In this document: in pieces, positions 2,547 through 61,372 of the stretch
Position numbering within the stretch: the stretch's first letter is position 1
How the letters are laid out: each line of letters begins with the position of its first letter
Assembly (NCBI GenBank): GCA_003971905.1
Contig: RSEE01000001.1
Location: forward strand, 1,550,001-1,614,000
Origin: Moniliella sp. 'wahieum'
Lineage: Eukaryota
Direction: 5' to 3'
Length of the DNA: 64,000 bases
The notes under the pieces: model-generated
What the model saw: the letters and a program-made list of their open reading frames with translations, nothing else
The model's database searches: none
What the model was told of the DNA's origin: nothing
Translations under genes and position numbers: made by a program

Positions 2547-3729
2547 GTTGATCGTGGAGGGGACGACAGAGGCGGGGGGGGGGGGAGATCGGAGAGGAGG
2601 TGATGTGCCAGAAGAAGGAAAGAACCCCCCAAAGCACCACCGCGCCTCTACTCCTCCCCAGGTGTGTGTGTGGGGCACCGGGCACCGGTTAGAGAGGTGG
2701 CCGGCCGGTGGGATCCGTTCCGAAGCCGACGCCGCGGCTAGTCAGGGCTAGTGGCGGAAGTCCAGGACTCGCCTCAGTACTTAGTCCATGCTCGCCCCAC
2801 AGTACCAGCAGGATCAGCCTGATCTCAGCTAAGCACCGCATGTATCACCCGCCAATTTAGCATCGTCACGCATCGCTGCCCCAACTTGCTGTGCACATCC
2901 TCCTTGCCATTATCAATGCCTCATCGAACCCATCGGACGTGCACACCGTATTGGCTGTTCCGTCGAGCAAACGACTCGCCCAGCGTTTCGTCCACATCAC
3001 TATAGAGGTTCTCACCCTACCGCGTAGCCAAACTGGGGGGAAAAGAGCGTAATGGGGGCATCCGCTGCCGCCCGTGGATTGATATATAGTTGAGAGAGAG
3101 AGACAACCGAGACCAGCTCGAGAGAGAGTCAACATATCTCTCCCATCTCGTCGATCATTAATTTCGACCAATCCCATCTCCCTGTGAGACTTCATAGTGA
3201 ACCTCGATGATGAGGCTGATGAAGAGGAGAGAGAGGCAGCCAGGCATCTGCCTTCCCTCTTCATACAAAGCAGTAGTCACAGGCAGTAACCGAGGGGAAA
3301 GGAGTTTAGAGAGAAAAGGGACCAGTGCCCCAACTGGATCCCACAACGGATATAGTGTCCAGCACATATAATAGTGACCAGCACATGCAGCATTTTGAGG
3401 CGAGAATCTTCGGGATCCACTTTACTAAGATCCAGTCTTAGAGTGCCCTCTCCCAATATGGAAATTGCCAAGACGCCAGGAGTTGGGTGGGGCTGCATCT
3501 CCAAGAGCGTCGATGCTATCAAAGGGGAGACCCGAGATGGAAGATATACAGAGAGAGCAACAGGGTAAAAGACAGTTTACATCTCGACCTTCAGCAGAGA
3601 TAGAGAGATTAGGACAATAAAAGAGGAGTGAGCCCAGCTCGGTATATTGGGCCTGGAGTTGGCCAGAATGATAAATCCTGGCAAAGAAGTGTAAGGGAAT
3701 GTGGAGTATAGGAAAAGCCGCCAACGATC

Positions 3730-5241
3730 TTAGCAAGTCTTGGTCGTCGCACATCCGCGATACGCTGCTCCCATGAGCACGACAAATGCTTGCGCCTCTG
3801 GGGAACGAGAGGTGGAGACGTTGCTAGTCCAGTCGTAAGGGTTCATAGCTGGGGAAGCGTATCCTTGCGAATCAATATGACCGTTGGATGAGATCGTGGT
3901 GCGGAGATGGTGGGCAAGAGTGAGATGGGTATTGTTGCCCAGACCCAGCTGGGCCATACGATAAATGGCACTGGCTACCCCTGCGCTACCTGCCACATCC
4001 CAGGCCAAATGGAGTTATCGTCAGGTCCTTGGGGCCCGCCGGCCAGGTAGCCCTTGAGCAGTCCCGTTAGTGAATCCACCATGGTGCACCCAGCTTGTGC
4101 AAAGCAAGTGGCGATCGGGTTCAAGATACTGTTCACATGCCTTCGACTTGAGTTGCTGATGAGCTGAGTTGTGCTGCCCCAGGCCAGTTTTTCAGAACAG
4201 CCAGTACCCGCAGCAGGCCATTAAGCGCCCAAGCATTCCCCGTCGTCCACAAACCCACAGATCGATCCCCTCCGCCAATAATGTGCTGCCAAATCCCAAT
4301 CAGCTGGGGATGACTCCATTGGTTTGGTCCCTGTGATTGGTACTCCAGTGTTTGCTGATACGATTGCATTTGGCTCACAGTTAGCTGGAGCAGACTGGTA
4401 TCGTTGGCTGCAGCGGCTTGGTACGCCATGAAAGGGAACGTCATATACTGTGGTATAAGAGAGAAGAGTTGTTAGGAGTTGTTACCTTTTTTTTTCAAAG
4501 CAGCAAAAAGTATCAGGCAGAACGTACGACAAAGTCCGACCACATTTCTAGGTTATGCTCACGCGAGCTGATCGCACCCGAAGGATAACGGGGCACACCA
4601 CCCAACAGATGGTGAAGCTGCCGGTGGACAGCATTTTGATATGCCTGGGCAGGTGGGTAGGAAGAATCATTGGACGCATGGTAGGAAGAAGAACAGCGCT
4701 CACTCCCAAGGAGCAAGGGTCACCCGAGGAACAGCCCCGTTGATAAGAACGTCGGAATTGTTGTGTAGATCTTGGGCGCAATGTACGCCAACGCTGGAGT
4801 GCTAGCAACTTGGACGTTCTTCGGAACCGTTCCTTGAGGGAAAGATGACTTGGAAAAGACGGCTTGAGTCGGGGAATATAGTTCCAGAAGTGCCTCGGCG
4901 TTGGCACCGTACTCCCAGCTGGGGAAGCAAGTTCTTGTGCACGCTGTGCCACCAAATCAATGTTAAACCCCATATCAAAAGATCGGGACCGATGAGTAAT
5001 TCTTCGAGCAAAACCCGTCCTGCGATGGGGCCCAGGCGCCTGGCCATGTCTCCGACCCATCGCGACTGGTCGACGGGAGTTCGGAGCGATTGGAGTGGGG
5101 GAACAGAAAAGAAGTAGGTTGGGGGTGGGGGCAGACCGAATGGACGCTTGGGGTGCAGCCCATGCTTGTGCGATGGCGATGGATGGCAAGGATGAGCAAG
5201 TAAACGACCGAGTATGCGGCCCCAGTAGCGAAGAGAAGCAT
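3730..5241 (-). CDS. Secreted glycoside hydrolase, GH105/GH88-like (alpha/alpha)6 fold
   Basis: Hydrophobic N-terminus. Motifs SWEYGT.AEAL, GDPCSLGVSAVL, WSDFV|YMTFPFMAY (intron 4448..4527), LWTTGNAWALNGLLRV and C-terminal SPEAQAFVVL. Frameshifted. Confidence 0.75.
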
Positions 5242-7076
5242 GATTATAATGGTGGCCTGGAAACATTGAAGAGGGAAGAAAAGGCCACGCGCAGGGGACA
5301 AGGAAGATGAAGAGCCGTGCGGTAAAAGAACACAAGCAAGAAGATGTGGTGGTGGTTTTGAAGAGAGAGCCGAATGGAACGAGCACAAAGCGAGGCAGGG
5401 TTGGACGCCTGTCGTTCGCTGAAAACGGTGAGATGAGGCGTTTGCGAGGCTGTTACTATTACGCTGAACGAGTTGAACACACGTTGAGGAGATCAGCATT
5501 AACATTCGATCATGAGAGCCAGGGGGTGCGGCACGAGGTGTATACATCCAGGTACATACCCTGCCATCTCCGACCCGGTATAAGAAGTCCATACTCTATG
5601 ATCGATATGATCGTAGCATCGCAGGGAGCCGGTGTAACAAAGTTACCGTGCTGCTGTCTGTGCGAGAGCAGGCCGTCTTCTGCACCAAGCCCGCATGGTT
5701 CCCGCCGTCCGCAATGCGCGCGCAGCGGCAATTTATATCAAAATTAAGTTGCAAATGAGTAACGGCCTGCGCCTGCGTGTTGTTCGCACGGGCAGCAGAT
5801 GGCTGTGTATGTTCTGTGTTGTGCTTGTGCGGGGTAGCTGGCGTGGCAGTGGCCGCGGCACAGGCTGGGACAGTACTTCCGATTCGGAGCAGCTCGGCGC
5901 AGGGTGGCTGAGCGCGCGTGCGCGAGAGCGCGGCAGAACGCCACCCAGTGACACTGCCCCTATGCTGTTATCGTCACACCACTATACTAACTTGTCTCCA
6001 ACCCCTGATCGGGTTTTCGCCACTGGGTGTAAATCCCACGGCCTCAGAATCACGTGTATATATACCCCTCCATTGACACAAATGCAAAGGGAATAGTCGA
6101 TAGGCTGTGTCCTACTGGTCGATGATCGTGGTTCCCCAGCCACGTCCGAGAACAGTTATGCAGTGGTGAAGCTTGAAGGGAAGACTGGAGCTGAGTTGAG
6201 CTTGAGCTGCGCTGAGCACGTTGAATATTGAATCCTAGCAGTGAGAAACAGCAGAAAAGGATAATTTAAAAGGAGAGTGTGGCACTAGGTCAGAGAGGAT
6301 AGGGATACTGGCATGCCGCCCGCATGTGTACTAAAGAAGATCAGAGTGATCTGGTCGGGGGGGCTGTGGTCCTCAGACCCTTGGTCCATGTCCTGCACGT
6401 CAATTGTTCCTAATATTCGCACAGCGGCCAGTCGCAGGCGCAGGTCAGCAGGTCAGCAGGTCAGCTAGCGATCGCCATACATGCACAGGTACAACGTGTT
6501 AAACAAAACTAGGTGCTCAAAGCAACAGACGAGGTGATGGAGTGAACAAAAACGTTGTTGAAAACTGGAGCTGCTCGCTAAGCTAGCGCTAAGCGCTATA
6601 CTAAAAGTGCTATATCGTCCGCTATAGCTACGGCGCCCGCTACTCACGGTTAGCTGTATGTTTATTGTGGCGGTGGCTGACTTCATCGGTCGTGAATTAT
6701 TAAGCACTTTCAGCCTCACCAAGCCCCCGGGGCTGCGCAGGCTCCGAGAAGGCTGATGGCGCGCGCGTGTAGCCACGTAAGCCCAGGGACAACTACAGTA
6801 GTATTCTTTTTTTCTGAGTAGTCTTCCTTTCGCCCTGATCGACCTGATCCTACCACCAACGCCTATTTCTCCGCAATCGATCGCCCACCCTACTCTGATC
6901 CTGTCCTTCGACACATTTCAGCAGCCATTGCTGTCTTCATAACTGCGCGGATCAGGACGACGTCGCTACAAAATGTGATACTCTTTGGTCTGCTTTTGGA
7001 CGGAAGAACATGACATTTGTATAGGACACCAGCAAAGAACGTAATTGAAACACCATCGCTTGTGTAATGGTAGTAA

Positions 7077-9009
7077 CTAGAACCAAATCCAACTGATGAT
7101 GCGAATCCACCCCTTGGGCTTGGGTTCTTCTGGTTCCGGGTTTTGACGGTACTGCGTTAGCCATGGTTGGATTGGGACATCCTTGAGTGGGATCCAGAGA
7201 GGAGTGCCAGTGTAAAACTTGTATCCTAGCAGAAGGAAAACATTGAGATGGGAGCACAATAGGCCGAAATGAACGTCTGTGGCTCTTGGTTACCGGGGAT
7301 GAAGAAGGGAAACCCGCCCGTGATAAGACAGAAAAAGGAGCCAGCCAATCCAATCCATCCCAAATACGGCTGCCCCCACGCCTGCCACGGGAGCGCTGAA
7401 CGGGGAATGCCTTGTGCTCGCATGGCATAGTATACTCGGAGAAAAATCAAGCATGTGACGAACCACTGGTACAGTGCCAAGGATGCAGTCAAGCTTTGGA
7501 AGTACCCAAACACGTTGGTTGCACTTGAACTGACTGCTGTGTACCCCAAGGGCCCCCAGCGATGACGACAAGGATTGCCACATAGGGAACGCCCCACCGG
7601 TGGGTTTTGCGGAAAATCTTGGGGCAAACCCCATGTTGGCCAGAGCCATTACCGAGCGGGATCCAGAGAGCGTGCCCGACGAGAGGGAGCTGTAGGCGGA
7701 CGTGATAAAAACCACATTTAGTAGACTTGATAAGCCTTTCACCCCGGCATTGGTGGCAGGACACGACAAAGGGAGATGCTGATGCGTTACCCGAAGAGCT
7801 GATTAGACGCGGGTCATTAGAGGGGACAATCAGGCCAACACAAAAGACGAGCGAGAGGTAGATTGCAACTACACGAATGAAGACGCGTTTGGCTGCTCGT
7901 GGTAAGGCTTGGGCGCGGATTCCTCGTTTCAGCTGCGGCCGCACAGATGGTCTCCATACCCTGGTAGCTATACGCGGCGTTGGTGAGGGTGTACCACAGA
8001 CCATACCAACGACCAGCTGACCCTTTGGCGAGGTACGACACCATAGGGCCTGGGTTCCGCCAGTATTGAAATCCCGTCATGTGCCCGTTAGGCCCGGCAC
8101 CAAGATCGACGCATATGCAGAAGATCACAAGCCCAATCGCAGTAGTAAGCTTGATGATAGAAAATGCGTACTCTGTCTCGCTGTAGACCGGGTAAAGACG
8201 AGCGTGGAGACCATGAGCACTACAACCAAAATGGACACGATCACCGCCGGATTCAGTGTGGAGTTCCAGTACTGCGCTAGCGCGGATGCGGCGAAATCTC
8301 GCCCGGTAAGCCAACGAAAGAACCGTACACGGTGGCCCATCCCGATGAGAAAGCGAGTGCTTGGGAAACAAACATTCCTGCGTGTCGAACGTAGTAACCG
8401 CTCACGGGCGCTAAGGTGGTGAGCTAATAATCAAAAGTCAGCGTCTATATCGCCAGGTGGCAGTATACGAAGCGAGAGGGTTCGGTAGTATAAGAGACGT
8501 ACCTCTGCCTGACAAAAGAGCATGGAACACGCAAATACGCCCACAATCAAGTACCCGAGGAACAGGGAAAGGGGGCCTGCATGGGCCAAAGCTTTTCCCA
8601 CTCCAAGGAAGACACCTGTACCCACCGAACCTGCGTCACAACAAAAAGTCATTCATTAATCCTCGATCCTTGACGACAACATCATCACATAAGCGTGTTG
8701 TGAAACGTACCAGCAAGGGAGATCATGGCCAGTTGGCGGGAGGTGAACGCTTCTCTCACTCATCCTGGTCGAACAGTTTCTTCGCAACGTCGGGATCAAT
8801 GTTGGAGGGTCGCCAAATGTTTTAACCTTGCCGGCAAAGCGATCCACCGCGCTTAGCTTGACCTCTACCTTCTCTTCAAACTTTTCGTCCACCTGGGATT
8901 TTTCGTCCAGCTCGGATACCTGTTCAGCTCGAGGGTCGAAGACGGTTGTTGGGACGTATGCCACCGCAGGCGACGATGGTGTCGGCGACGGCGCACGGTG
9001 AAAGGGCAT
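7077..9009 (-). CDS. Amino-acid permease (APC superfamily, fungal YAT family)
   Basis: MISLA|GSVGTGVFLGVGKALAHAGP (intron ~8630..8710), ETEYAFSIIK, GFQYWRNPGP, AAYSYQGMETICAAAAETRNP, ASASPFV, LPWQAWGQPY, C-terminus RIISWIWF*. Frameshifted. Confidence 0.92.
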
Positions 9010-10309
9010 GCCGTTAAATGCCGTTAATGGGGGGAGAAGGAAGGTTTCGTCTGTGGCACAGAGAGAGAAAACTCGTTTTAAAGCACTGAGTCAAGGCATA
9101 TATGGAATGACACATCTCGGTATAGAGATGTCTCTATCCGAGGGTAACAAACACCATGCCCCAATCTATCGTGCGTGACAGCGTTCCTGGGGCAACATGT
9201 TTAAGCTACACTACAGAGTGGAGCACAACAGAGACTGCATAAAACATAAATGTGTGATGATAGCTTCAACCCCTGTGTGGCGCTCACAGCGCTTGTCCTA
9301 TTATCGCATGGTGGACTTTTCTTAGCGTCCGCGTGCTTCAACAATGAGTAATGAAGCTCCATTCTAATCGTACCTGATGCGTTTCGTATTATTCACTCTT
9401 TCCATCTCGGCTCCTGTGGTAAAGAGATGAGGGCCTACGGACTGTTTGCGTATAGTATGTGTGGAGCACTAACACGATATTGCTATCGCGCGATCCATAT
9501 AGCACGTTGTGCTTCTATGTCACAAGCGATTGCATCACACACTTGCTTGTTATGCGGTAGTGGATGGTCTGTCGAGATACACACCGCAAAAGATCTCTAG
9601 TTGGTGTTCCTTACTCTTAGGGCCTGAGGCTGAAAAAGGAGTACTACATACATGACGACGACTGTGGCTATATAATGCACAATTGCTGATGGGGATGGAA
9701 TATCCGTTCGGCCTTTATCTCACTGCAATAGCCGTTGCGGGGCAGCCACCTACACCGGCTATGCTCTTCTCTGAGCTTTCCTTGGAGGAAGATTCGCATT
9801 GCAAAGCTCCGTGTATGGCCACAACGCGGTCACGGGCGACGCTCGCCATCGCAACTTTCTCCCAGCACTTTGGTACCTGAGCTCGTCAATCGCGGCCGAA
9901 GGGACATTGAAACATTGAAAGCACATCGATGCGCGTACGTCAGCCGCGGGAGATTACGATCTGCGATGGACGATGCGGGATGTGCATTGGATGTTCAAGT
10001 TGAACTTCAACGCTGAACGTTTGGATGTTGGACTTCAACCTTCAACGTTCAACCCTCGCCGTTCCTAATAACCTTGGCACGCCCTGAGGCCGAAAGGGGT
10101 TATTGGGAGCTAGGTCCGCCAAACTGCCCTGGCTGACGTCAGCTCCTGAGCCAGCCGTGCTCAGCCTGAGCGCTCCCCGTCACCGGTCACGCCCAGACTC
10201 CAGCTTGATGTGCCACGCATCGGCCATCACACATCGGCAGGCCGCCGAGCGCACCCCTGCTCCTCCACCCACACCAGCCCTCCCCCCGTCCCCCCCTGCC
10301 CCAGCCGCC

Positions 10310-11499: not shown

Positions 11500-12102
11500 A
11501 TGCCGAGCCGCTGAGCGCTTTGCCCAAAGCTCCCTGACTGAGCAGCCTCAGCAGAGGCAGCTTGGTCCCGGAACCAACCATCCCTTTACTCTTTTCCTCC
11601 ACCTTTCTACTCATCTTTTCCTCCCATCCTCCATTGAGGGTCCAGAGCTGTTGCAAGCAGTTGGTTGGCATCCTTGATGCGATACACTTTTGCCTATTGG
11701 TTGAGTCCCATCCCAGTCTTCTTGTCTTGTTGTGCAACGGTCTCATCTTCGGGCCCCCTCTCCTATCCAACGAACCATTTTCCCTAGCCCTCCCTCTTTT
11801 TTTCTCCCCCGAGGTAAGTTGTTTGTTGCTTATAGAGTTTCGCTCCCTGGTGCTGCCTAGACGTGGTTGCAGGCTTCAGCCCCTTGGCCTCAATTCAACG
11901 TTGAAGTTCAACGTTCAACGTTCAACGTGTACCATGTGGAAGAAGACACGCGGTAAGTTGAACCCGATGAAGTTCATCGCGTTCATCGATCATCTGATCG
12001 ATTCAACGTTCAAGTTGAAGTTCCACGTTCATCGATTCACTGTTCGTAGAGTTCATCCGGTTATCGACATGGATGAAGTTGAAGTTCAATGATGAAGTCG
12101 AT

Positions 12103-12144
12103 GAAGCTTGAAGCTTGAAGCTTGAAGCTTGAAGCTTGAAGCTT
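12103..12144. repeat. (GAAGCTT)x6 heptamer tandem array
   Basis: Six perfect copies, embedded in a longer TGA/TCA-rich quasi-palindromic tract (11893..12165). Confidence 0.95.
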
Positions 12145-12459
12145 GAAAGTTCATCGTTCATCGACATGGCTGCAAGAGCTGTAGCAATTGCACTTCGTGC
12201 CGGCGGAATTTACAGGCGGAGTGGGACAGCGTAGCACCAATGCCACCCCTGCTAGCTTCATAAGGCCTACGGCCTAAGGCTTAGGCTCAAGACCCATAAA
12301 GTTTAAAGCCGTGAGGCGTACCGCCCTCTTACGTCCCACTGAGCCTACCAGCCTAGGCCGGGAGACAGGTGTGCATCCACCGGAGTGCTTGCTGCTCCTG
12401 TGCCGCTCCTCCCCCAACAACAGCACCCATCCCCGAGCACACCCGGTGACTTTGACGAC

Positions 12460-13695
12460 GTCACTGCCCACCAACCAGCCCGTCGTCATCGACAACGGAG
12501 CAGGCACCATTAAGAGTGGTTTTGCTGGCTAGGAGCAGCCCAACTGTTTCTTCCCTTCCTTAGTTTGGTTTGTGGGCCGACCCAAGCACCCGCGCGTCAT
12601 GGTGGGCGGCATAGAGCGTGATGCGTGTTCGTTGGTTGTCGGGCAGAAGAGTTGCGCAGGCTGCACCAGGTCAGCTACCAAATGGAACATGACGTTTGAT
12701 GACCGACTGGGAAGACATGGAACACATTTCGGCCCGCATTGACGACGAGAAACTGAAGACGGTTTGTCGGAGGCATATACCGTGTTGCTCGCCCAGGCTC
12801 CGCTCAGTACTGAGAATCAGTACTCAGTACTCATCACTCAACCCACGCCAAACCTGCGAGGTTGCAGCCCAAGTGCTTTTCAAACCGGTCAACGTACCTG
12901 CGGTCTTTACCTCCATCCAAGCCGTCTTGACCCTCTACTCTCGATAGGCCGCGCTACCGGTTTAGTTCTCGATGCGGGCGATGAGATAGCCTATGTCGTA
13001 CCTGTGTTCGAGGGCTTCTTGATGCCCCGCGCTATGCGCAGGATCGACATGGCCAGGAGGGATGTGGTGGAGCAGATACCAATGCAAGACTCCACAGGGT
13101 ACGGACCAAGAGCCTCTGCAGCTCTCGGCAAAGCAGGTTGTGATGCAACAGATCAAAGAACAGTGTGGATATACCCCCTCTCAACCAGGCCAATGCAGAA
13201 ACCAATGTAGGCACTTCGCACGAAACCCAAGAATTCAAACTCCCAGATGGAAACAGCGCCAAGGTGCATGGTATCCTTCCCCCTGAGGGACGGGGAGAGG
13301 AGTGGGGTGGGGCGAGGGATGACGCTGAGCGCTACCGTGGTACCCGGTACCCGGTGACGGTACCTGTTGCGTAGCTCGGGCCCGAACCCTTTTCCGTGGA
13401 GATCCTGTTCAACCCGGACCTGGTCGGGCTCCCGTACCTAGTTATTGTTCACCAGGCGGTGTACAACAGAGTGTCCTCCGTGTCAACCTGGACTTGCGAC
13501 GGGACTTGTAAACCAACATTGTCCTTTCGCTTGGGACGACCTTGACCCGTTGGTTTGGCGAGCGACTCTTCCTTGAGATCCGTGCCCTGTTTGGTTGGGA
13601 CACCACACTCAAGATCTATGCCCTCCCTCATACTCGGCCTTGATTGGTGAACCGATCTTGGTGGGGGGCTCAGTAAGTTTCCCAAAATCAGGTTT
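12460..13695 (+). pseudogene. ARP1: Decayed actin-related protein 1 (centractin/dynactin) copy
   Basis: NQPVVIDNGAGTIKSGFAG, VGRPKHPRVM, TDWEDME, FNVPA-like VNVPAVFTSIQAVLTLY, GLVLDAGD, FKLPDGN, EILFNPDLVG, NIVLS. In-frame stops at 12530..12532 (TAG) and 13509..13511 (TAA), many substitutions at conserved residues, a 34-bp insertion, and a retained intron at 13264..13374. Confidence 0.85.
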
Positions 13696-14350
13696 TGTTG
13701 TTGTTGTTTCTTCTTGTCTTGTTGGCTCGTTTAGCTGCTGGCTGGGCTTGGGTTGGATGTCCAGCCCCAGAGTATTACACAGAGCCATATAAGTACAGAG
13801 TGCTACCCATGGCCGCGACTTTGCTCGGCAGTGGAAAACGATTAGGCCCGGTGCTTGTAGATGCGCATGCCCACTTGAACATGCCCATCTCCTGATGGCT
13901 AACCTATCCCCCACTGACTTGCTCCCCAGCCCATCCTGGACCAACACGTACCCGCTTTTCGCACGTCCCTTTTGGCAGGTAGGTTGGCTCTTGTTGGTCC
14001 CTAAGAGAACAGGCAACTGGTTGGTACAAAGAAGCTTGAATGAATCTTGAAGGGTGGTGGGAAGAGGGTGGGGGGAAGGGATGGAAGAGGACACAGCAAA
14101 AAGTCAAGGATGTATGGATGTTGCTGTAGCCTAAAAGCGTGTGCAAAACACGGAACACAACAGTGATATGCAACTTGTTCTTGTAACATGTAACGGGTTA
14201 GTTGTGAACGTGTTGAGCGCACGCTGAGCCAGTAACGTGTTCGGAGTCCGCGCGCGCGGTTGCGATTGCGGAGAAAGCGTTTGAGAAGAACACTCGGTTT
14301 GGGTAGTGCTTGCTGCTGTTGGTGCTGAGATGGTGAGTAATTGTTAGGGG

Positions 14351-14398
14351 TGTCACATGTCACATGTCACATGTCACATGTCAGGCATGTCACATGTC
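14351..14398. repeat. (TGTCACA)n heptamer array
   Basis: Four perfect copies plus partial copies, followed by AAGCTTC and TGACGCG units. Confidence 0.9.
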
Positions 14399-15169
14399 AA
14401 GCTTCAAGCTCTTCAGCATGTTGATGCGCGTGACGCGTGACGCGCGCTGGTGGCGCACTGAGGTGCTGAGCTCAGCTGAGCGCCGGCGCTGATGCACTGA
14501 TGGCGCTGTTGATACACGGAGGTGATGTTGAGCTACTGAGTAACGAGTACCTGAGGCCTTGGCTCTGGCCTCAAGACGAGTGTACGCAGGCACTGGGGTT
14601 CTGTGTGCTCGGGTGGCTGCGTGTCGGGAGTGGCCGGAGGGTGTAGGGTCCAAGAAGGGTCCGGTGGCCTTGCCTGCAAACGCGGCTCCGTTAGCAGTGC
14701 CCTGGCGTGCCCGCGCGTGCCGTTGCGCCGGCTTGCTTGTTCTGCAATCTGATTAAATCGCCAAAAATCAAATGTAGGAGGGTCTCGAAGGGTCTCCATC
14801 CACCTGTGAAACCCATGAGATGCCCATTCCCCATCCCCGCCCAGACACATCCACGCCGGCCTAGCCACACGCGGACAACCATTCTCCATTAAATATTAAT
14901 CCCGGCTAAGCCGCCCAAGCCCCGACGCCCGGGATGCTCCGGCGGGGCGCTGGCAGGCAGGGCAGGCATGCGCCTCTGCCGTACAAACATCAACATAGCT
15001 GAGCTGAACCTGTGAGAACCAGACCAAAGGTATAGTAGTGCACGCATGACATTCGACGAAGAAGGGAAGAAATAAGAAACGCCCCTCTCTTTGACCTTGA
15101 ACTGCATCTTCTTCTTACCCATCCCATCAGAGCTTTCACCACAGCGCTGCCACGACTCCTGTCCAGACC

Positions 15170-16428: not shown

Positions 16429-17036
16429 ATGTCTGTGCTGCTATACCGTACGTGTTTTGCATGTTCTACTGTCTCTTCTCACTGGATTTGTTGTTCGAGG
16501 CGGGAATGGAGCGCTATGGTATACCCCATTTTTGCCATGTATATCGATGCATCGTGCATCGTATTAGTATAGCTAGACAGCTGTATGCTGCGTTGAGAAG
16601 AAAAGTTTACCCCAAGAAGTGAGGAGCGTCGTACGGATGAAGGACATGTTCACTTGTGCCAACGTAAGGGTGAGGTGCTGCTCATCCATGTGAATTGGAA
16701 GTGGGAGTGGGATGGGCTTGCATTGCGATGACTGCCCTAGGCAACCGAGGTCTTCCGTTGAGGTACTATAAACCCAGGCGAGGGCAGGAGCACATTTTTG
16801 CACAGACGCGACGCGGAAGGGCAGATTGGCTGCTTGCATGAAATTTCATTAATTTCATTAGGCGCCACCGCGAGGCGCCGGTGCTGACATAAGAGACGGT
16901 TGAGATTACAAATGGCCCTCCATCGGCCATCCCAGTGGATCTGAAGGTTAAGTCACCGCAAAGGCAGCTCCACCGTCGTGGTTGTGTCTGCTGCCGGCGT
17001 TTGCGTCTCCTCTCCTCTGCCCTCGTCACATCTGCC

Positions 17037-17883: not shown

Positions 17884-17994
17884 GCCAGGGCGAGGGGAGA
17901 GGCGCACTGCATGGTATTGCTCCACTTGCCAAGGTAAAATGAAACGAGGAAGAGAACAGAAGAGTCAAAGGTCACAAGGAGAGGTTGTTGTAGC

Positions 17995-19348: not shown

Positions 19349-19687
19349 GATGGGGGGGGGGTGCGTGGGAGGGAGGCTGGGGACGAATGCGCTTGCCTGA
19401 CTGGACCTGCGCAGGGGGTGACGGTGACACGGGCTGGACGGAGCGGCGCGGAGAAGAAGGGGGGCCGAGTCAAATTTACTGCCACGTTAAAGTGGACGGA
19501 CGATGGGTTTTTGAAACTGGCAATGGCGGCTGCGGCCGGTTGCGTCAATAATGCCTCACCTCAGGCCTCAGTAGCTGAATATTCAGTCTCGCCAGCCACT
19601 CCATCCCAGTCGGCGGGCGCAGGGCGGAACGCGGCGCGCAGCTGGTTCCGCGCGGCGATCCCACCCAATTAGCTTAGCAGGCCCAGC

Positions 19688-29011: not shown

Positions 29012-29679
29012 GTTGGATGACTTGTTTGTATTTAAGGCTTGCAAGGTTCATTTAGGAATCCTGTTATGTACCAAGGAAAGCGGAAACAAAACAACGACAA
29101 CGATCATCAATTAGTATGGAAAAGAGGTAACTAGTTAACCAATCGACCACGGATTAACGTTTAACACCTTCGCGATCCAGGGCGTCTCATATTATGGTTG
29201 TCGTTAGCCGTAGTTCACTGTTTTGAACGTTGCACGTTGCACGTGTTGTGAACGTTGGCGAAATGTCGTGGAACGCCTGGATATTCAATCTCTAGGATCG
29301 CAGGTAGGATCAGGAATGTTTTGCAGGCCAAAAAGAGTGGAGGTGGGCTGCGAGAATGTCACTGGCGATCGATTGATAGAATTCCACAGGGCATTACTCG
29401 ATGCACACTTCACGCGTGGCGCGTCACGCGCATCACGCGTCACATGCATATGTCCATGTCATGCATCATGCTACGCCGCGTCACCGGTCACCTAGGAGCT
29501 GGGCGCTGGACGCGCATAAAATTAAGAGGCGCTAATCTGGAGCTCGCACCTCGCACCTCGCAGCACCTGCAAGCATCTCCAACCAGCTCGACGGGAAAAT
29601 AACAGTCATCTTTTTTGTAATCGCACACAGGCAGCCAGTTGGGACACGCCGCCCTCGGCCTGTCCTCGGTCGTATTGAC

Positions 29680-30050
29680 ATGTACTGAGTACTGAGTACC
29701 TGAGTATAGAGTCCCTAACATGTACACTGATCATTACTCGGATCCCAGTCCGAGTGCGTTGAGCGACTGAGCGACTGAGCGGCTGAACGGCTGAACGGCT
29801 GAACGGCTGAACGGCTGAGCGGCTGAGCGGCTAAGCGGCTGAGCAGCGCTGATCGATCTGATCGCGCTGATCGATCTGATCCCCTTCAATGAGCCTCAGC
29901 GCTGTGGCTAAGGCGCTGAGGCAGGCGGACGCAGATGATCGATGACGGATGGGAAAATCAATGACGCGTGACGCGATGACGTCGCATGTGACACGTTGCA
30001 GGTTAAGTTACACGTTAAACGTTAAACGTTAAACGTTAAGGACGTTAAAG
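29680..30050. repeat. Compound short tandem arrays: (GTACTGA), (CTGAGCGG/CTGAACGG)n, (TGACGCG), (ACGTTAA)x4
   Basis: Seen directly; (ACGTTAA)x4 is at 30012..30039 and the 8-bp array at ~29760..29845. Confidence 0.9.
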
Positions 30051-36595: not shown

Positions 36596-37112
36596 ACTTG
36601 CACTCAAGTGTCACCTGTTACTAGTTTCTGCTCTTGCTGTTTTTGTGTTCACCTTCCTCCTCTATTCGTTGTACTCATCCACCCAATCGGTAACGGTAAT
36701 CGCGTTCACCACACTCCCTTCCCCCCACCCGACCAAGGTTTACCATACCCCTTGATCGTCACGATACAATTTGTCACCGTTTCCCTATACCTATTGGCCA
36801 TTCATTCTAGACATTCTACATAGATGGCTGCCTCGATTTCGTTGAGGTGCTTTTCATCATTAATCATTCCTGCGTTCCAATATCCAATAACCGGTAATAC
36901 AACGGTTCGACCGACGTCGTGCGTACGTCATGCATTTGACAAGCGAGACAATAGGTATAGAACCAGAGACGCGACTCTGGATGGCGGGGCTTAACGATGA
37001 GGACGGTTAGAAAGGGACAAGAAGGAACGTGATGCGTGGGAGCAAGAGGGAAAAAGAAAACCCTGTTGCTTGAGCTCGGTGGAGGGGGAAGCGTCTGCGG
37101 CTCAATCATACC

Positions 37113-39606: not shown

Positions 39607-40426
39607 GTGCGGTCGCTCCCCAACTCACTCGCACGGGGGCCGAATATCGGATGCGGCTGACGGAGTCGCCGACGTCACATCCCCATCACACCCAGCCACG
39701 GCCCGCTCCTGGCCGCTGGCAAGCAGCGGGGGCAGGGACAGCGCGGCCGTGCGGGACGCATCACTTGCACAGGCAGGCGCAGGCATCCCGCGGAGGGCGG
39801 CGTGGCGCCAGTGTCAGAGGCAGCATGATTGCATTGTTGGTGCGTGATGCGTGATCGGTGATCGATCGATGGTTGGTTATTAACCACGTGACTAGTCTGG
39901 TTAGTTACCAGATACTAGTTACTAGTTACGTTAGATCCGGCGGTGATGCGCTGGCGGGCGACGAGGGAGATAGCACCTGGAACGGCAGATGCTACGCTGT
40001 TGTTGGGTCCCATCATTCACCATTAGCCATCCACCGGCACCCGTCCCACCGCGAGATGAATACTACTCTTTGCCGCGGGTGATCAATTCCAAGGTGAACC
40101 AATGAGTAAGAATTCGAACGTGAACTCGTGAAAAAAACGTGGGACCAAAAAAGGATTCTCTCGAATATGGGAAACCAAAGGAACTGTGTGAGCTAAGAGG
40201 ACGGTGAGAGAGAGGGGGGCCCCAATTAATCGCGAGCGAGAAAAGAGACAAGTGAAAGGGTAAGTGGGAGTGTATAGTGTATAGTGCCATGTGCTGCTAG
40301 AACAACATCAGGCAAAGAAGGGCAGAAGATAGAATCACGGAAACGGCTGGATGTGACGGCAGGAACTTTTTTGTTGGAAGAGTCGTGACGCTTTATATCT
40401 AAAACGACGGTAAGCGTTTCATTGTC

Positions 40427-43384: not shown

Positions 43385-44406
43385 ATTACGAGTATCATGT
43401 AGTTTGCAGCTAGTACCTTCGATTCTCCGCCGCTCTGACCGAGCAGTGACTCCAGGGGTGTTATTCGCTTCGCTCTGCTCCGCTTGCTTCACCTGCCCTC
43501 TACCAGCACTATCGCCCTCATCGATCATCGATCATCCCTCATCGAGCGAGTAGGCCCAAAGACGATGGTGAGAGATTGGCGTCTTCTGGCCCCAACCAGC
43601 TTTCCAAACGCTAATATTTTAGTGGCACTGTAGTGGCATTGTTGATACTTCTCGTGGCGCAATCATGCCCTCAGCCCCATCTCTGATGGGCCAGCCCACA
43701 CGCAACCGTGTTGTCCTCTACGTGATTTGAGTGCAGGAGTACCTTCTCCGGTAGAGAGAGACATATGGGCATACTGACCAGCAGCCTCCCGATTCGCTTC
43801 TAGCTTGACGCCACACTCTCCCCACTCTACATAATATGATCTTCTTCCCAGTGCGCTACCGGTGCCTATATTTGTACTAGTATAAGCGAATTGAAGCCAG
43901 AAAACCCCGACGGCGCGTGCGCTTGGCCAATTGAGAGGGTCTAGCAGAAGAGGTAAGATAAAGACAGGCGGGCATCAATGGGGGTCGGTTTCTTAATAGA
44001 GTAGTCAGGCCGGCCCCCTTGGTACTTTTAGACGGATGTGGCTTGCCCCGCTTTGACTGATGGGCGTGCAGTGGAACGTTCGAACGCAGCAAACGGAGCA
44101 CGGCCTCGCCATCGTCGTTCGACCACTTGCCGCCCTTCCTCTCGCTGCCAAGCTACACCCTTCCTGCATGAACTGATGAGGGGGGGGGGGGGCTCTGATG
44201 TAGGGCAACCCTTTTGCCATCAGTACTCAGTACCTAGTGCCTTCCAGTGTCGGGGAGTACGAGCGACCCGGACGGGAAGAAGCAGTTGTGGGTGGGGGCG
44301 CGCAGTGTCGGGGACGGGGGGGGGTACGCACAGGAGTACACAGAGGAAAAATATGCGGGAGTGTAGAGGAAAAGGGGGGAACTACGGGGTGGTGGGTGAA
44401 AATGGC

Positions 44407-48589: not shown

Positions 48590-49091
48590 CAGCGCAGGGA
48601 CACTAGAGAGAGGGGGTTTTGTATTAGTAGTTTTGAGTTTCGGGTTTTGTCATGTGTGTGCATTCTCAGGTTTTCACATTATTACTGTTGAATGAAAGCG
48701 TCTTCGTCTTCGCTGTACAACAGATCTGTAGGATGAAAAGGAAACGGAGAGCAATCCGTCAGAACAGGCAAAAAGGGCGAACCGCCTTACATCTTTGTGC
48801 CATGGAATAAGACACGATAACAATGTTCTGCAATCATATCATCATTGACAGAGAACTTAATGCTGGGACAATAAAGAAACGCTGCGCTTACACCGACCCG
48901 TTCACCCGGCGTGTTTATTGCTTGTTAAACGGCTGATGGGATTGAGAAGCGTAACCCATTGCCCATATCAACTTTACAGTGATAAAAGCCCCAGATAACG
49001 CTTCACTCTGCACTATTAGTCATTGGCCCCCAATGATGGAAGGCGGGCACTACATCGCTATAGTTCCAGCCAGTAGGGTGTCCGCGAGTCA

Positions 49092-49135
49092 CAGTTATGC
49101 TACAGTTATGCTACAGTTATGCTACAGTTATGCTA
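49092..49135. repeat. (ACAGTTATGCT)x4 11-bp minisatellite
   Basis: Seen directly. Confidence 0.9.
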
Positions 49136-49699
49136 CTCTGTGTTACCATATGACATGGAGTCACTGGTCACCCCAGAAATCATCGAGAGAGTGTAGATAG
49201 AGATCATCTTCTTACCAAGCTCGTAAGGGAAGGTGGGGCCCACAGGCCCTGTGTATACTTCCGCGCAATTCTCCAAGCCTATACCCTTTTTTCTCTGTCA
49301 TACTAAGAATTGATCTCAACTTTTTGTATGCATGGCGGGAGGTATATGTAATCGGGTCAAAAACTTTCATGCCCCCCCGCCTCACTATAGTCACACTACA
49401 CCCTGTTGTGATGTTTGTGGTTGTTGTGGTCACCTCTCCTGTGTTCCTTACCGCAACATAGCGACGGGAGTGCGGGATTCCAATCCACGTCCTGTCCTAC
49501 AGGACCGGCTCACATATCTTCGGCGAGACACCGACAAGGGTCGTGACGCGTGACGTGTGAAGCGTGAAGCGTGAAGACTTGTCACACGTCAGCGACAGTT
49601 TGTCCAGAAGACTCCGCGCTCTATAGCTCTATATTACTCCGAAATGGCTCATTTCTACAAGTACTAACTATATACACCCGTACCTCTATTAATGAGCAA

Positions 49700-50260: not shown

Positions 50261-51990
50261 GGAAGTTACTAGGTCTCGGTCACCGGTCACAACCAAAACG
50301 TTTTAATGCCAACTGCTACCACGGATTATATGGTAAAGCTAATAGTAATAGGACCCTACATTGTGGGACTTGTATGCCGGGCTTAACGCTAAGCACTTAT
50401 AGCGCTTCCTGGTACCCCACCATAAAAAGCCTCTTTGTGTACAAGGATTCCATATACACATTGGAAGTCGCTGCAGTTGAAGGGCATGTGCATGATGTAG
50501 TCATCCACATGTTTTCCACACACAGCTGTGCTGGTATGGAAGGTCGAATTAAGGGATGTGACCTGTAACCATGGCCGTGCGAGAGGAGAAGTGGTACTTA
50601 TAGGCTTCTCCGTGTCGATCGGTGACGCGGGTAATGCTCTGTTATATGGTTGCTGGACCTGCTACGAGCATTACTAGAATGACTTTTGGGGGACTACTGC
50701 CTACCCTACCTTCTTATACGCCGTGAGGCCGAACTCCGGCCATCGATGAGGCGCCGTCCATAGTGCCCCCAAGTTGTACTACTCTAGCAGGTCGGGTGGC
50801 CTTCTGTACTGTCGCATGTCACATGTCACATGTCATTGTCATGCAAGCACCGTGCAGAAAATTGAATCAGGTGGCACTCAGGAAGACCCTTCCGAGTGAT
50901 GAAAGAGTGATAATCGATAATGTGGTTTTCACCAGTCCCTGCCGCGGGGGAAACCATTTCTTCCTAAGTCCCAAAGCCAAGAACATTTCCTTTGGTGACA
51001 TGTGTCGATGACCCTAGTTTTGTTGACTAGTGACTTGCCTTTTTTGGTTTGACACGGTAGGGCTTGAGAGATAGGTTGGCCCGCGACAGACTGCCAGATA
51101 ATTGATTGATGGACACAAAATGCGTCAGACGCATATGTCCGTTTGAGCAGCACCTTTTTGACCCCACAATTGCCGACTGTGCCGTCAGATCACAGGCAAC
51201 ATCTGGTGGACCATAGACCATTTTGCTCTATACATCCTATATTCTGACTCGCGAAGCGATCGTGCACTTTCTCTAAGCTTCCATCAACGTCATCAACGCA
51301 TGTGCGGCCCGCAGAGCCACACCAGAAAGTCAATATACAGAAGTTAGTATATATACAGTAGAAAGTATAAGCGGGAGGACCTTTTTCGCCAGTTTTTCGT
51401 TTTTCTTTTTCTCCCTGCTGTCTCGCAAGTATCGTATCGCTCGTTGTAGCACCCCCGCCACTGCTTCATTACTATCCTCCCGTGGTTAATGATTACTGGC
51501 ACAATCCCTTGGGGTTCACATGTACGCCGAAAACCCATCTCTACTGTATATAAATCAACACTCAACAGAAGGACACAGAGACCACAAGTTATGACCGTAC
51601 CCTCGCCATCGTAACAATATAGCTCTGAGTTGCGCTGTTATACGCTCTGTGCGGGGTTAATTTGGCCGCCGCGACAGTACCCAAAGCGAACTACACTGTG
51701 CCCGTTTGCTCAAGTAAAATGGCAGGCCATCAACGATGGTCATCAAGCTCTGCAAGGTGCATAAGCGAGATTAATCATTCCCATATAAAACCCCTCCGCC
51801 ACTCGTTGATAAGCGACTACTTTTTCTGGTAGACACCATCACCTCCTCGCAGGATAAAGTTTTAAAGGTCCCCTGGTTGGGTTCGCTTGTCGATACAGGG
51901 GTGGATTGTTACCATCGGTGTGCCGGACACAGCGAACCTCACCTCCTATCGCACCTCCCGCCGCACCTACCGCCGCACCCCGCACTACCG

Positions 51991-52051
51991 CCACACTCCC
52001 CACACCTCCCACACCACACCTCCCACACCACACCTCCCACACCACACCTCC
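51991..52051. repeat. (CCACACCTCCCACA)-type 14-bp C/A-rich tandem repeat
   Basis: 3-4 copies upstream of the zinc-finger gene. Confidence 0.85.
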
Positions 52052-52232
52052 AACATCACACCTCTCACTCCATCGCTACAAAACCACTGCATTCCCATTG
52101 CGCTCGTTCATCTGGTTTGTATCTGCCCCATCGCTTGCGCGGCGCTCGTGTTGAGGCTCTCGACAACTTAACTGACCACAACATATTTACTCCTACTTCC
52201 CACTCCAGGCGACAGATATTTAAGAGCATAGG

Positions 52233-55025: not shown

Positions 55026-57050
55026 GACGGATGGCAACACTGTAAATTAAGAGAATAAGGAATGAAGAGTGAATGTGAGCTATGTGTATATAGGCGTCAT
55101 GAACTAATAGGCTCACCTCCAATTATTCTGTGTGTGGTCCACAGTTGAACACATACACATTTACAGCATAGCATGATACAGATACAATACATACTGGATA
55201 CGGCACCCTTTTGTTTTCCTCTCTTCTTTTTCGACCATGGAATGGGTGTTTTCTCTGTGTCTTCAGATTGTTGCCGATGGCGACTCTCGGATCTAATTTC
55301 GTAGTGCTTCAATTTATCAGTATTACTTGAGGTTGGGGCAGCCTCTCATCAGCAGAACACATGAGGCGCCTGATGCTAGGATGTGACGGCATTTGGCTGT
55401 GAAAAAGGGTGCCGGAATCAACCCTCCGGAAAGCCTTGATTCTGGGCTGCGATGCGCCGCTCATAGATCCCAGATCCGTCCAGAATTGGTGGAGCGCCGA
55501 CACCATAACATCGGCCATCCGCTGTTTTGACCTAACACCTGATGTTTGGACGCGGCACAGCCTCAATCTGAACCTAGTCCTGAGCGCCTTACCTCCCTGG
55601 AAGTCCTGCTTGTATTAGTGCACGATAAGTCGCTACTAGGTCTGAGATCGGACGATAATGGTGGAGCCGGGGCACCATCAACACCGACCTGTCCGTATTT
55701 GAACCTATACTGTGCACCATCTCTTGAGCATGTGAACAGATGCAGCTGTTAGTCGGCAGGCACCCTGGTGGAAGGCGAACGACTCAACTATAACCATTCT
55801 CTTTCATGAGGTAAGCCCCACAAACGGTTCAATCTGTCGATCTGTTCCCATCCTGTCAGGCTCGGGTGATTTTCCGTCTACCCACAGTAGCGCCAACTGA
55901 GTCCAAACTCGAGTCCAAAAGCGCCAACAGAGTCCAAACTCGAGTCCAAAAGCCAGGATGATTGGGAACCTTGATGTTGCAAGCATGTGCATGAGAAGAG
56001 TGCACACCACTCCTCTCCAGTGGAGAAGTGTATGTTAGGTCGGAGGGTCATCCCTGAAAACTTAAGTGGACACCTGAAAACTCAAGTGGAATATGCATGT
56101 CAGTGAACGAGCGGGGGATGCGCTTACACATTGGGTGTGGGAGAAGTGCGGGGTGATTTTGCCGGGGGCCTATAAGCGAATGGATGAGAGATGTCACATG
56201 TCACATGTGACACAAAGCGTCGGATGCCGGCGGTGGAAGCGGGGCGGACCGGACAGTGCGGACCGTGCGGCTCAGCCTCAGCCTCACTAGTTACTGCGGC
56301 CGATGCGTCGCGCTGGCCTTTTGCCATGCGTACTACCAGTTACCAGCTTAATTCCACCCCGTCGACTTCCCTAGATGCGTCTCCCCAAGTAGCTCTGCAG
56401 CCGTCCACTCGTCGCTCTTCCGCCGCCATTTTCGCGCACAAAAAAAACAAATGTGGGAGGCGAGCAAGGCAGCCGGGGAGGAAGTTGCTTGCATTGGCCA
56501 AGCAGCGCTTGTATGTGTTTGGGGAAAGGGTTAACAGGCTCAGGGGCGAGCTCCGAGCCGTCTTCAATCCGGAAGAGGTGAATCCCCGTTGGCATCTCCC
56601 AGATCAGGCAGGCTACAACCACGTCGTGGTCGAGTGGCTTCCAACACGATTCTCCCTGCAGCTGCAGCTACATCATCGATTTGGTCGACAACAACAGGCA
56701 CACAGCCCTCGCGACAAGGAATCGCACGTGGAGGAGAAAGGCAAAATCAATGACGCATGTAGGGCCGGTATCTGTGCCGTCGTCCGGCAGCCTCCTGGAC
56801 GCAGCTCAACAAGCAGCCCCTGGTTCTCTTTGGTCTGCGCACGCCGCCGGGGCTAGGAGCCGTGTGGGGAGCGGCGCCGGGGCCAGCGCGGCCGAGGCCA
56901 GCGTCGACGGCGGTGGCGGGTGGAGATGCGAAAATAACGCATACCCCGGGCGGAAACGTGCCAGCGGGGGCGGAATGGCCATTTGTCAGCCTGCGGCCGC
57001 TGCTCGCTCGCCGCCTCTCCACACGAACGCAGCTCCACCACCGGCCCGCC

Positions 57051-57519: not shown

Positions 57520-57582
57520 TCCCAATCACTGTTCAAGCAGCACCCAAGCGAGAATGAGTGCACGGAGAGAGAGAAAGCTCAT

Positions 57583-58895: not shown

Positions 58896-61372
58896 GACAT
58901 CATCGCCAGGGCGCAACGCATCACATAAGGTGGGGGGGGGGCTGTGGGGCCGGCACTCGTGAACATTGAAACTGAGTGGCTCTTGTGACCCTGCCCTTCT
59001 CTCAAACGAAAACGCCACCATCTGCCAAAGGCATACCGTCACGAGCGATCGTCACGAGTCAATTACTCACTAGTTATAGTAATCACTGGACAGATCCAAC
59101 AGTGAGAGCAACAACGCAAGCATTATCACGGCCCTTGATGCAGTATGCTCTTTGGAACAATCGAGTCAACGAAAACAGAATGCAGTAGTCTCTATCGGAG
59201 GAAAGTTAACAGTATAGCTGATAGTATAGCTCAACAGTCACTATATCCGGGTGGCAAGAGTGCCTCCCCACGAGCCCTGTCAGGGGCGGGCCCCGTCAGG
59301 GGGTTCATCCACCAGGTTTGTGGGGTGCAACCCCCCTTAGAAGACCGAAGGACGACTCACGGTAGTTTCGGGCTTGTGCTAGTAGTTGTGGTGGATTCGA
59401 GCGTAGGTAGGGACGAGCAGCTGAGGGCTTTGGGCGCGAAGCAGACTGAGGCGGCTGCATGTGGGGCAAGGCTGCATACGCACCGGCGTGGGGTAGTAAC
59501 GTGTCTGAAGCCTCCGAGGGTTAGGCTTAGCGACGGGGTTAGAGGCAACAGTGGAGGACAAACACTGCCAGAGCTGGGACCAGTGAACAGGGGCGGCGTG
59601 TGTTCTTGCATTGGATTTAGGGAGGACTTTCATAGCCATCGCCTCTCGATACGGTGGTATTTAGGGGGTGCTTTTATATGTTTTTTTTTGTACATTTGCA
59701 GCTGCTGCCATTTTGCAACCGCTGCTATACCGGCAGCTGCTCTCTTGGGCACCATAGATGATGCTTTCTTTTGTAATGCTCTTCTGAGGGGTGGGAAGCG
59801 AGTTGGAAAGTGTAGGATGGTGTCACGGGCAAAGACGAGAGCCAGCGAACCCTGCTCAGAATACAATGCTCTCTCTTTTCTCCAGGCATTCCGTGTGACC
59901 CTGACGGCACAGGCCGGGCGCGTACCGGGCTCTCGCCCATTTGTGTTAAGAGTAGGTTCTTTGCGGATTTCATGCGAGTTAGCCGTCCTAGTAATAGGGA
60001 TGCTCTCCTTTCCCAACTACTAACAGAGATGGGGGAAGATGGGGGAAGCTGACTAGGAGTAAAGCATGAGGAAAAGCCTTGCGAAGGGGGGGTGAGGCTG
60101 AGGTGAGAAAAGTTACGGATGCTTTGTTCAATCCTCACAGAACTCTCTCCCAAACCATCTCTATCATTAGGATCGTGGAGCGCCGGTAATACAGAGATAC
60201 CTGGCAGCTAACGGAGGTATCGACTCTTCTGCGGTTCCATGGTGACGACATTTGCCTTTGTGCCTGCTTAGTAGTTTTCTGTCGCTGGTCCACTTTTCGG
60301 CCCCGTTGACGATAGCGATCAGCTGGCCCATTTGTTTCCGATCCGTGTTCACCTCTCTGGAACATCTTCTAGTACGGTTATAGGAGTGCAACTGCTCCAC
60401 AATCCCTTGTACATGTCCTCTGCTCTCCAGTAGAATGCGCTCCCAGATTCAACTCAATCGGATTGTGGCTGGCAAGCGCGGCAGTTCTACGTATTCATGC
60501 GACAATAGCCGCCTTTCGCCCAAGTGAATTGGTAGCCCCACGTGGCCACCCAATTATCAGAGTATCTTCCTTTGCGACGACGGTCACCCGTTTCCCATAC
60601 CAGGCTTTCATTTCTAGGTCGCCCGTCCGGCAACCGTGCAACCGCGCATCCCCTCTTTTCCTCTGTTGCCCCGTTCTTCCTCTATTGCATTACTTTCCCT
60701 TAGTCCGCTTTCATTATCGGCTGATCTGTTAACAAGGGTTCGAGGTTTTACCCCACAGCCCTTTATTGGCGTCTACGACTGTACTCTCCTCGCCAATTTG
60801 ATCAACGGGCCACTGTACAATCAACTCCTTCTCTTAGTTGCTCCTCCGCTTCCCGACCTCGTCTCCAGATCCCGTTTCAGCTCTCTGTCCCTCAGTCAAC
60901 ACAGTTCGTGTGTTCTACCCATGTGCCAGGTCGAAGCCCAGCTCAGTTCAGCCGCGTGTGATCCGCTTTCAGTCACGCCGCCCCCGTCCCAGTTCAGATA
61001 CAGCCCTGGCAGTGTTTTTGTCCTTCGCTGCCACTCTCTGCCAGAGCCCGAAGGCTTTTGACATGCTCCTGCCACTCAAGACAGTGCGCAACACACTGGC
61101 CGTGTGACACCTAGTTGCACCCATCTCGACTAGGCGTCAAGCAGCCTTTCCTGGTTCCTAGGTCCGCTAGGATCTACGGCCATTATGTTCAAGCAGAAAC
61201 ACATTGAGTCGTCTTCTCCCTCTCCATGGGATCATATCACTAAACACCCCTGGGTAACCCCTTTCGTTGGGGCCCGCTCATAACAGGGGTCCATGACATT
61301 AATCTCCGTGGAGGCCTTTTAGTAATACTGAGGCTAGGGATAGGGTCGCTATACCCTGATGAACGTGATACC

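Follow-up and report, generated by a model that had tools for sequence, protein, structure and literature searches.

Palindromic heptamer repeats in intergenic DNA of Moniliella sp. 'wahieum' are mutation scars at TNA triplets, possibly the excision footprints of a DNA transposon

Intergenic regions in a 64-kb window of nuclear fungal DNA from Moniliella sp. 'wahieum' (contig RSEE01000001.1, positions 1,550,001 to 1,614,000; "the window" is this whole stretch, and coordinates refer to it) carry short tandem arrays in which a TNA triplet alternates with a 4-bp palindrome. A sequence-only reading had described these arrays as a shared grammar. Everything was examined within this one window, and all counts are window counts. 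We find a mutation scar rather than a code behind this grammar. Its elementary unit, TNAxy + y'x' + TNAxy, is a 5-nt direct repeat whose last two bases stand inverted between the two copies; a TNA plus a 4-bp palindrome is equivalent to tandem copies of the odd palindrome y'x'TNAxy. The palindrome is created by the event itself from the bases flanking TNA, where no palindrome stood before. We give about an even chance to the explanation that the arrays have built up as excision footprints of a DNA transposon moving by cut-and-paste, or of a very close functional equivalent.

Of the 136 rows that Tandem Repeats Finder returned for the window, 31 had a period of 7. The window contains 41 perfect runs of this period that reach 14 nt or more, whereas 30 dinucleotide-preserving shuffles averaged 3.1 and never exceeded 7. 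In 23 of these runs the unit was dyad-symmetric, consisting of one base plus a 6-bp palindrome (0.4 in shuffles, maximum 2), and 22 of the 23 had the form A....T plus one base, where random heptamers would give 2.7%. All five runs of at least 21 nt obeyed the palindrome rule. There were 73 decamers with a 4-bp palindrome between two TNA triplets, where 20 shuffles gave 8.25. Tandem arrays with other periods likewise exceeded shuffles. Much of the sequence-only reading stands on these counts. The enrichment over shuffled controls that it had called for was found within the window, all 25 of its pairs of unit and coordinate were present, and its two variants of other lengths, an 8-bp array at 29760-29845 and a 6-bp unit at 12074, were as described. 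The diversity of palindromic linkers was also confirmed, with 13 of the 16 possible 4-bp palindromes serving as cores of perfect scars. Two points went too far: the palindrome rule applied to the 23 symmetric runs and not to the other 18 of the 41, and the frequent flipping between TCA and TGA was not borne out, as the centre base changed between C and G in 6 of 73 decamers and was unchanged in 60. Overall, the general idea of a site-directed cutting and repair or transposon-footprint signature, going beyond slippage alone, is supported. A single dyad-symmetric heptamer array, GGTACCC x2.4 at 13339-13355, is centred on CCG rather than TNA; it lies in the intron of the pseudogene described below.

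The flanks of the decamers identify the source of the palindrome. A flank-derived 5-nt direct repeat was present in 58 of the 73, on the right only in 23, on the left only in 16 and on both sides in 19; the 15 without a flank match are about twice the shuffle background of 7. The scar occurs in both mirror orientations at about equal frequency (23 versus 16, p=0.34). Seen from the direct repeat, there were 100 T.A-anchored pairs of 5-nt copies with a 2-nt gap, and in 72 of them the gap held the reverse complement of the two bases before it; each of 15 control anchors gave only 0-5 of 23-78. The self-complementary controls A.T, C.G and G.C gave 0/29, 3/23 and 2/35. That only the T.A anchor shows the scar, and not the other self-complementary anchors, argues for protein recognition of T-N-A rather than a purely structural effect. 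Across 42 scars no base at positions around TNA was conserved, with TNA alone in common, though the centre base was C or G in 36 of them (86% T-S-A; the share is 67% for TNA sites in DNA not predicted to be coding, p=0.008). Finally, 40 scar runs were inspected for the extent of their period-7 match, which was exactly 5 nt in 9 and 6 nt in 10, with unrelated flanks. Since 19 of 40 match over just 5-6 nt, the scars arise de novo.

After TNAxy + y'x', the copy most often spanned 5 nt (72 hits at 39 loci). Longer copies, which extend further upstream of TNA, spanned 7 nt in 10 hits at about 8 loci, of which one lies in a coding-like 9-nt repeat, and 6 nt in 3 hits; a 4-nt copy was seen 10 times where about 2 were expected. 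At copied lengths of 6-7 nt, control anchors gave 0-1. The inverted part was constantly 2 nt, with no hits for 3-nt inversions and two for 4-nt inversions, and the junction core was an even 4-nt palindrome (xyy'x') in all 39 perfect loci. Duplications without inversion (5+0) gave 4 hits, near chance level. The 5+1 and 7+1 classes occurred at frequencies indistinguishable from chance, the 7+1 class at 3 loci, judged among period-8 arrays. A hexamer array, (GCTCAG)x43 at 25126-25382 (+), with (CAAGCT)n adjoining at 24950-25029, lies within a long open frame; TCAGG followed by a single inverted base is one reading of its unit, although 5+1 scars are no commoner than chance would give.

A natural experiment is offered by an Arp1/actin-like gene at ~12430-13700 (+). 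This gene is dead, with an in-frame TAG in its GFAG|EQP stretch, further stops, and about a dozen small frameshifts in a frame-aware alignment to the full-length relative P0201; a single GT..AG intron is retained (13270-13374). The largest lesion of the gene is a 34-nt array of TCAGTAC type (12806-12839, +), which sits at a TCA and separates the Leu codon from the Asn codon of a conserved APL|NP stretch. The alignment to P0201 indicates that this array arose within DNA that was once unique and once coding. The array contains several flips and a variant spacer, which obscure its exact history. A 7-nt gap at 13638-13644 in the same alignment was considered as a further scar and rejected, as it breaks the 5+2 rule.

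Perfect scars reach a density of about 0.6 loci per kb of window. They number 39, against 0.3 expected, and a further 35 loci carry one mismatch (10.6 expected). This corresponds to about 0.6 decayed scars per intact one and, by rough inference, to a mean age of the order of 5% substitutions per site; the ratio suggests that the activity is recent or continuing. The arrays sit between genes, often upstream of reading frames. Predicted coding DNA holds only 2 of the 39 perfect loci, both in a doubtful frame, though the mask, derived from codon usage and calling 27% coding, is crude, and the split between coding and non-coding DNA is indicative only. Two-copy tandems had a fully symmetric heptamer as their starting unit in 9 of 28 cases, against 3.1 expected (p=0.002), so symmetric sites seem to be preferred targets, and because every scar makes one symmetric site, arrays should seed themselves. 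Slippage may add to the growth of existing arrays. At 14351-14410, both scar directions occur at one common TCA.

Only the products of this process are observed, and cut, hairpins and trimming alike are reconstructed from them. According to the transposon explanation, an element would integrate at nnTNAnn, making a symmetric staggered cut of 7 bp with TNA in the middle, and both of its flanks would carry the heptamer. Upon excision, each flank would be sealed as a perfect hairpin, and a host nuclease would open each hairpin 2 nt off its tip, yielding two 4-nt self-complementary 3' overhangs unable to pair with one another. End joining that retained one overhang (+2 palindromic bases) and removed the other (-2) would leave a net gain of 7, and partial retention of the second overhang would leave +8 or +9. 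Each scar would contain a new TNA inside a symmetric heptamer, and hence a preferred target, by which arrays would be seeded before slippage possibly extended them. The stagger is deduced from symmetry. Within the 5-bp TNAxy, the invariant A is at the centre and the T at one end only, which a two-fold symmetric enzyme could not read. The 7-bp wvTNAxy, in contrast, is symmetric about N, and mirror scars are equally common, so we read the primary lesion as a 7-bp TNA-centred cut. Flank hairpins opened by host enzymes and joined to leave footprints are described for hAT, Transib and Mutator-like elements and for RAG in parts of PMC5499845, and transposons with 7-bp target duplications are named for Basidiomycota in passages of PMC12730594, as hAT7 in Puccinia and Melampsora and Kyakuja in Laccaria.

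Several observations weigh against a transposon. The element itself, an inverted-repeat pair with a matching duplication, was not found in the window: inverted repeats with flanking duplications yielded no convincing candidate, and a search for 7-mer pairs with a central TNA bounding inverted ends gave one hit, inside a scar cluster, with controls giving 2 of 30,168 pairs. In a Pfam scan, none of the 331 window frames of at least 85 aa matched a transposase, integrase or reverse transcriptase family. The 7-bp duplication is deduced from footprints rather than observed around an element, and plain 7-bp duplications with a central TNA and no inversion were not significantly enriched. The joint is more stereotyped than the usual end joining of two hairpins, and joints with P nucleotides from both flanks gave 0 hits in the window. 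The hAT transposase Hermes nicks one base into the flank, predicting odd-centred junctions, whereas the palindromes here are even and 4 nt long. The loci are also clustered, with 15 of the 39 perfect ones in 29.1-31.6 kb (2.1 expected, p=7e-9) and 7 in 12-16 kb, and arrays reach 6.6 units, which would need many visits to one spot, or slippage. A more specific proposal goes further: that a recently active, undescribed hairpin-forming cutter, either a new transposon lineage or a nuclease kept by the host, with a T-N-A target and a 7-bp stagger, has left a genome-wide signature that builds palindromic heptamer repeats in gene-flanking DNA and reinforces itself, as each scar would provide a better target. 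We put this forward tentatively, as a possibility well short of an even chance.

Among the alternatives, a transposon-independent, site-directed break is unlikely but the most serious. Here a host nuclease, for example a domesticated hairpin-forming transposase, would make a staggered cut at TNA, followed by fill-in, hairpin formation at one end and rejoining. It would account equally for the T.A specificity and the 2-nt inversion; it agrees with the lack of both element and transposase in the window, and the strong clustering of these young scars could reflect accessible DNA. However, one cleavage of the hairpin-forming type yields a hairpin on one side and a blunt end on the other and duplicates no duplex, so the 5-7 nt direct repeat requires an extra fill-in step without precedent. 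A nuclease that recognises just three bases would also be hazardous unless kept under tight control. The hairpin-forming nuclease with P-nucleotide inversions proposed as the second model of the sequence-only reading fares in the same way: the invariant 2-nt inversion agrees with it, but the direct duplication of 5-7 nt is left over, and a staggered cut or target-site duplication is therefore needed. We consider it rather improbable that a polymerase switched templates or made snap-back copies at TNA during break repair or replication, re-annealing through the near self-complementarity of T-N-A. That triplet does pair with itself except at its centre base, symmetric heptamers are over-used, and a few decamers form full 10-bp palindromes with a flipped centre (11895, 12804, 16839 and 19576). 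Yet other self-complementary triplets, even the stronger-pairing CNG and GNC, gave only 0-3 of 23-35, a zero-loop fold-back of 2 nt is sterically implausible for a polymerase, and fold-back copying would flip the centre base that 60 of the 73 decamers retain.

The remaining explanations are weaker. Ordinary slippage of previously palindromic heptamers, aided by hairpins, would produce the perfect multi-copy arrays of up to 6.6 units and the excess of two-copy tandems of symmetric heptamers, and the excess of other repeat periods over shuffles points the same way; but slippage cannot create the 2-nt inversion, does not explain the restriction to T.A, and would duplicate an existing heptamer, which the 19 of 40 scar runs matching over only 5-6 nt do not show. 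It is very unlikely as an origin and probably contributes to array growth only. A selected regulatory grammar, in which promoter arrays bind a dimeric factor, would suit intergenic arrays that often lie upstream of frames, but 13 different cores with no motif in common except TNA, a 5+2 construction that is meaningless for binding, an array within a dead gene and the uneven, clustered distribution of scars per TNA site make it highly improbable. The first model of the sequence-only reading held that a 3-bp TNA target duplication and two terminal bases from each transposon end were left behind, in the manner of Tc1 footprints. The unit length of 7 is indeed 3+2+2, and PIF/Harbinger and IS5-group elements are known to target TNA. 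The window counts nonetheless refute this model and leave it scarcely credible: the 58 flank-matched decamers repeat 5 nt rather than 3, the 15 of 73 left unmatched compare with about 7 in shuffles, the 7+2 class could not be produced, and 13 distinct cores would demand 13 transposon families. An assembly or sequencing artefact is likewise extremely improbable, as no known error mode writes flank-dependent 5+2 insertions at a single triplet, and the long reading frames of the window are intact. One observation, that the palindrome is made from flanking bases, disposes at once of slippage as the origin, of a binding code and of the model of transposon end bases.

Returning to excision footprints, we compared the scars with known systems. 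As in the flank-hairpin footprints of hAT (Ac/Ds, Hermes), Transib and Mutator-like elements, and in the P nucleotides of V(D)J joining, as set out in parts of PMC5499845, a short inverted copy of the flank stands at the joint between copies of the target duplication. Unlike those footprints, the joint here is near-invariant (+2/-2), occurs at about 0.6 loci per kb and builds arrays, and the inferred duplication is 7 bp on TNA, as against 8 bp for hAT, 5 bp for Transib and at least 9 bp for Mutator-like elements. Compared feature by feature with hAT footprints, the scars do have inverted flank bases between target copies, in 72 of 100 T.A repeats. For a symmetric 7-8-bp duplication, the copied lengths are 5, 6 and 7 nt, and nnTNAnn is deduced rather than seen around an element; the classical hAT target consensus, nTnnnnAn, is a different pattern. 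All 39 cores are even, where Hermes would lead one to expect odd centres, and neither terminal inverted repeats nor a transposase were found in the window (0 of 331 frames). For Transib and RAG, a nick at the exact border gives an even palindromic P insert, and this is the form observed (xyy'x'). The major class does repeat 5 nt, but the symmetric 5-bp duplication of these systems is not what the scars show, with T at position 1, the invariant A at the central position 3, and the 7+2 class in addition. Because the even palindromes resemble RAG/Transib chemistry and Hermes would give odd centres, we do not file the scars under hAT.

Other mobile elements share single features with the scars. 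PIF/Harbinger elements and the IS5 group target TNA or TWA, a three-base target like that of the scars. Canonical Harbinger elements duplicate 3 bp, according to passages of PMC12730594, compared with 5-7 nt plus a 2-nt inversion here. The same passages present hAT7 and Kyakuja as cut-and-paste basidiomycete elements with 7-bp duplications, hAT7 belonging to a superfamily that makes flank hairpins; they come from rusts and Laccaria, however, rather than Ustilaginomycotina, and no copy, transposase or terminal repeat of such an element was found in the window. Tc1/mariner footprints also place a palindromic filler between two short target copies, but that filler is transposon-derived and constant per family, whereas here it is flank-derived and takes 13 forms. 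Closer to this fungus, a passage of PMC4081816 cites Laurie et al. 2012 for the suggestion that 10-bp repeats of Ustilago maydis, a species for which the sequence-only reading had named heptamers, are transposon footprints. They too are short and intergenic, in a related fungus with few transposons, but their period is 10 and not 7, a length that an 8+2 form of the same rule might give. Tandem repeats are reported to make up 4-7% of smut genomes and 11% of that of Pseudozyma flocculosa, where interspersed repeats are few (PMC4824034). A metagenome scan for three copies of one unit gave at least 120 loci, 8 of which had at least 3 scar loci, with one unit or with AT-only units; the matches listed were ordinary microsatellites, and none showed the many-core pattern. 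No published description of the pattern was found in full-text literature searches. What is new is the combination of a near-invariant joint, an inferred nnTNAnn target, a density of 0.6 loci per kb and the building of palindromic arrays.

The scars are distributed across the window as follows. Upstream of the Arp1-like pseudogene, a dense cluster at 11893-12165 holds (TTCAACG)x5, TCATC-GA-TCATC (11983-11994), a 7+2 scar (12091-12106) and (TGAAGCT)x6.6 (12102-12147). The two arrays on one common TCA at 14351-14410 consist of (TGTCACA)n on the left, with its core CATG taken from the left flank TG, and (TCAAGCT)x2 on the right, with its core AGCT taken from the right flank AG; (CGCGTGA)x2.6, that is TGACG-CG-TGACG, follows at 14427-14444. 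The richest region begins with single 5+2 scars at 29154-29492, namely TTAAC-GT-TTAAC (29154), TCATG-CA-TCATG (29459) and TCACC-GG-TCACC (29481), and continues with (GTACTGA)x2.6 at 29682-29699. The 8-bp array there, TGAGCGGC x10.6 at 29760-29845, can be read as a copy of the heptamer GCTGAGC, which has TGA in its middle, plus one inverted nucleotide. Further along, 29962-30039 contains TGACG-CG-TGACG-CG (29962-29975) and (ACGTTAA)x4 (30012-30039), and 30147-30171 contains TCATGCA x2 followed by the 7+2 scar CATCATG-CA-CATCATG (30152-30169). TGAGG-CC-TGAGG (30659), CCTGAGG x2 (30708), a 7+2 scar (30713-30730) and TGTGA-CA-TGTGA (30737) lie within 30659-30748, and CTAAGAT x2 (30843), GTCACC-GG-TCACC (30990) and TGAAGCT x2.3 (31169) within 30843-31184.

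The second half of the window has these arrays: (TACTAGT)x2.4 with a central TTA (39913-39929), (TCATCGA)x2.7 (43518-43536), TCAGTAC x2 (44220-44233), CGTGACG x2 followed by (GTGAAGC)x2.9, one mismatch from the rule (49542-49576), CGGTCAC x2 (50277-50290), (CATGTCA)x3 (50815-50835) and (ATGTCAC)x2.6 with a flipped TGACA at its end (56191-56212). Further 7+2 scars were found at 5597-5612 (TATGATC-GA-TATGATC), 6834-6849 (CCTGATC-GA-CCTGATC), 16844-16859 (TTTCATT-AA-TTTCATT, about 100 bp upstream of the NDUFV2 reading frame) and 51282-51297 (CATCAAC-GT-CATCAAC). Minimal scars include two with unrelated flanks at 6167-6233, TGAAG-CT-TGAAG (6167) and TGAAT-AT-TGAAT (6222), as well as TCAAC-GT-TCAAC immediately upstream of a BAR/SH3 gene (10041-10053), CCTCA-GG-CCTCA in mirror orientation (19559-19571), TCATT-AA-TCATT (36856-36868) and TGACT-AG-TGACT (51024-51035). 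A perfect 11-bp tandem repeat, ACAGTTATGCT x4.2 at 49091-49136, adjoins a scar cluster and falls outside the 5+2 rule.

As for its setting, the window has a GC content of 46-65% in 2-kb steps, and the products read from its frames include a BAR/SH3 protein, a mitochondrial carrier, the complex I 24-kDa subunit, an Na/H exchanger, casein kinase II beta and SNF5, among others. For the complex I subunit, the top match overall was 71% identical, and the nearest named proteins were from Ustilaginomycotina (Tilletiaria anomala, 65%; Parajaminaea, 63%), followed by Ceraceosorus, Tilletia and Pseudozyma. Self-BLAST of the window revealed no dispersed repeats. Two other genes extend over several reading frames. 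An amino-acid permease at 7229-8401 (-) has Pfam matches that continue across four overlapping frames (profile 134-226, 223-273, 274-325 and 347-448); it looks frameshifted and may be a second pseudogene, and none of its breaks is a 5+2 scar. A 3-hydroxyacyl-CoA dehydrogenase at 1432-2647 (-) is divided among three reading frames, for which introns and frameshifts are both possible. The lower-GC end of the window (60000-64000, 46-51%) has no Pfam match and is almost scar-free, with 33-, 35- and 47-bp tandem repeats at 62376, 62864 and 63795. Long homopolymers occur at 1381-1400 (C x20) and 44183-44196 (a G run of about 14).

If the transposon explanation is true, the footprints by themselves would bear witness to intense cut-and-paste movement in a genome with few or no remaining copies of the element, and would disclose nnTNAnn as its target, 7 bp as its stagger and 2 nt off the tip as the point where the host opens hairpins. 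Transposon scars, and not slippage, would then seed microsatellite-like palindromic arrays beside genes. If no element exists, the fungus would have an unknown site-directed process of break and repair, of relevance to DNA repair research. For the old idea that smut fungi owe their short repeats to transposon footprints, the scars offer a concrete test, and the tandem repeats of Pseudozyma flocculosa and the smuts might rest on the same scar rule.

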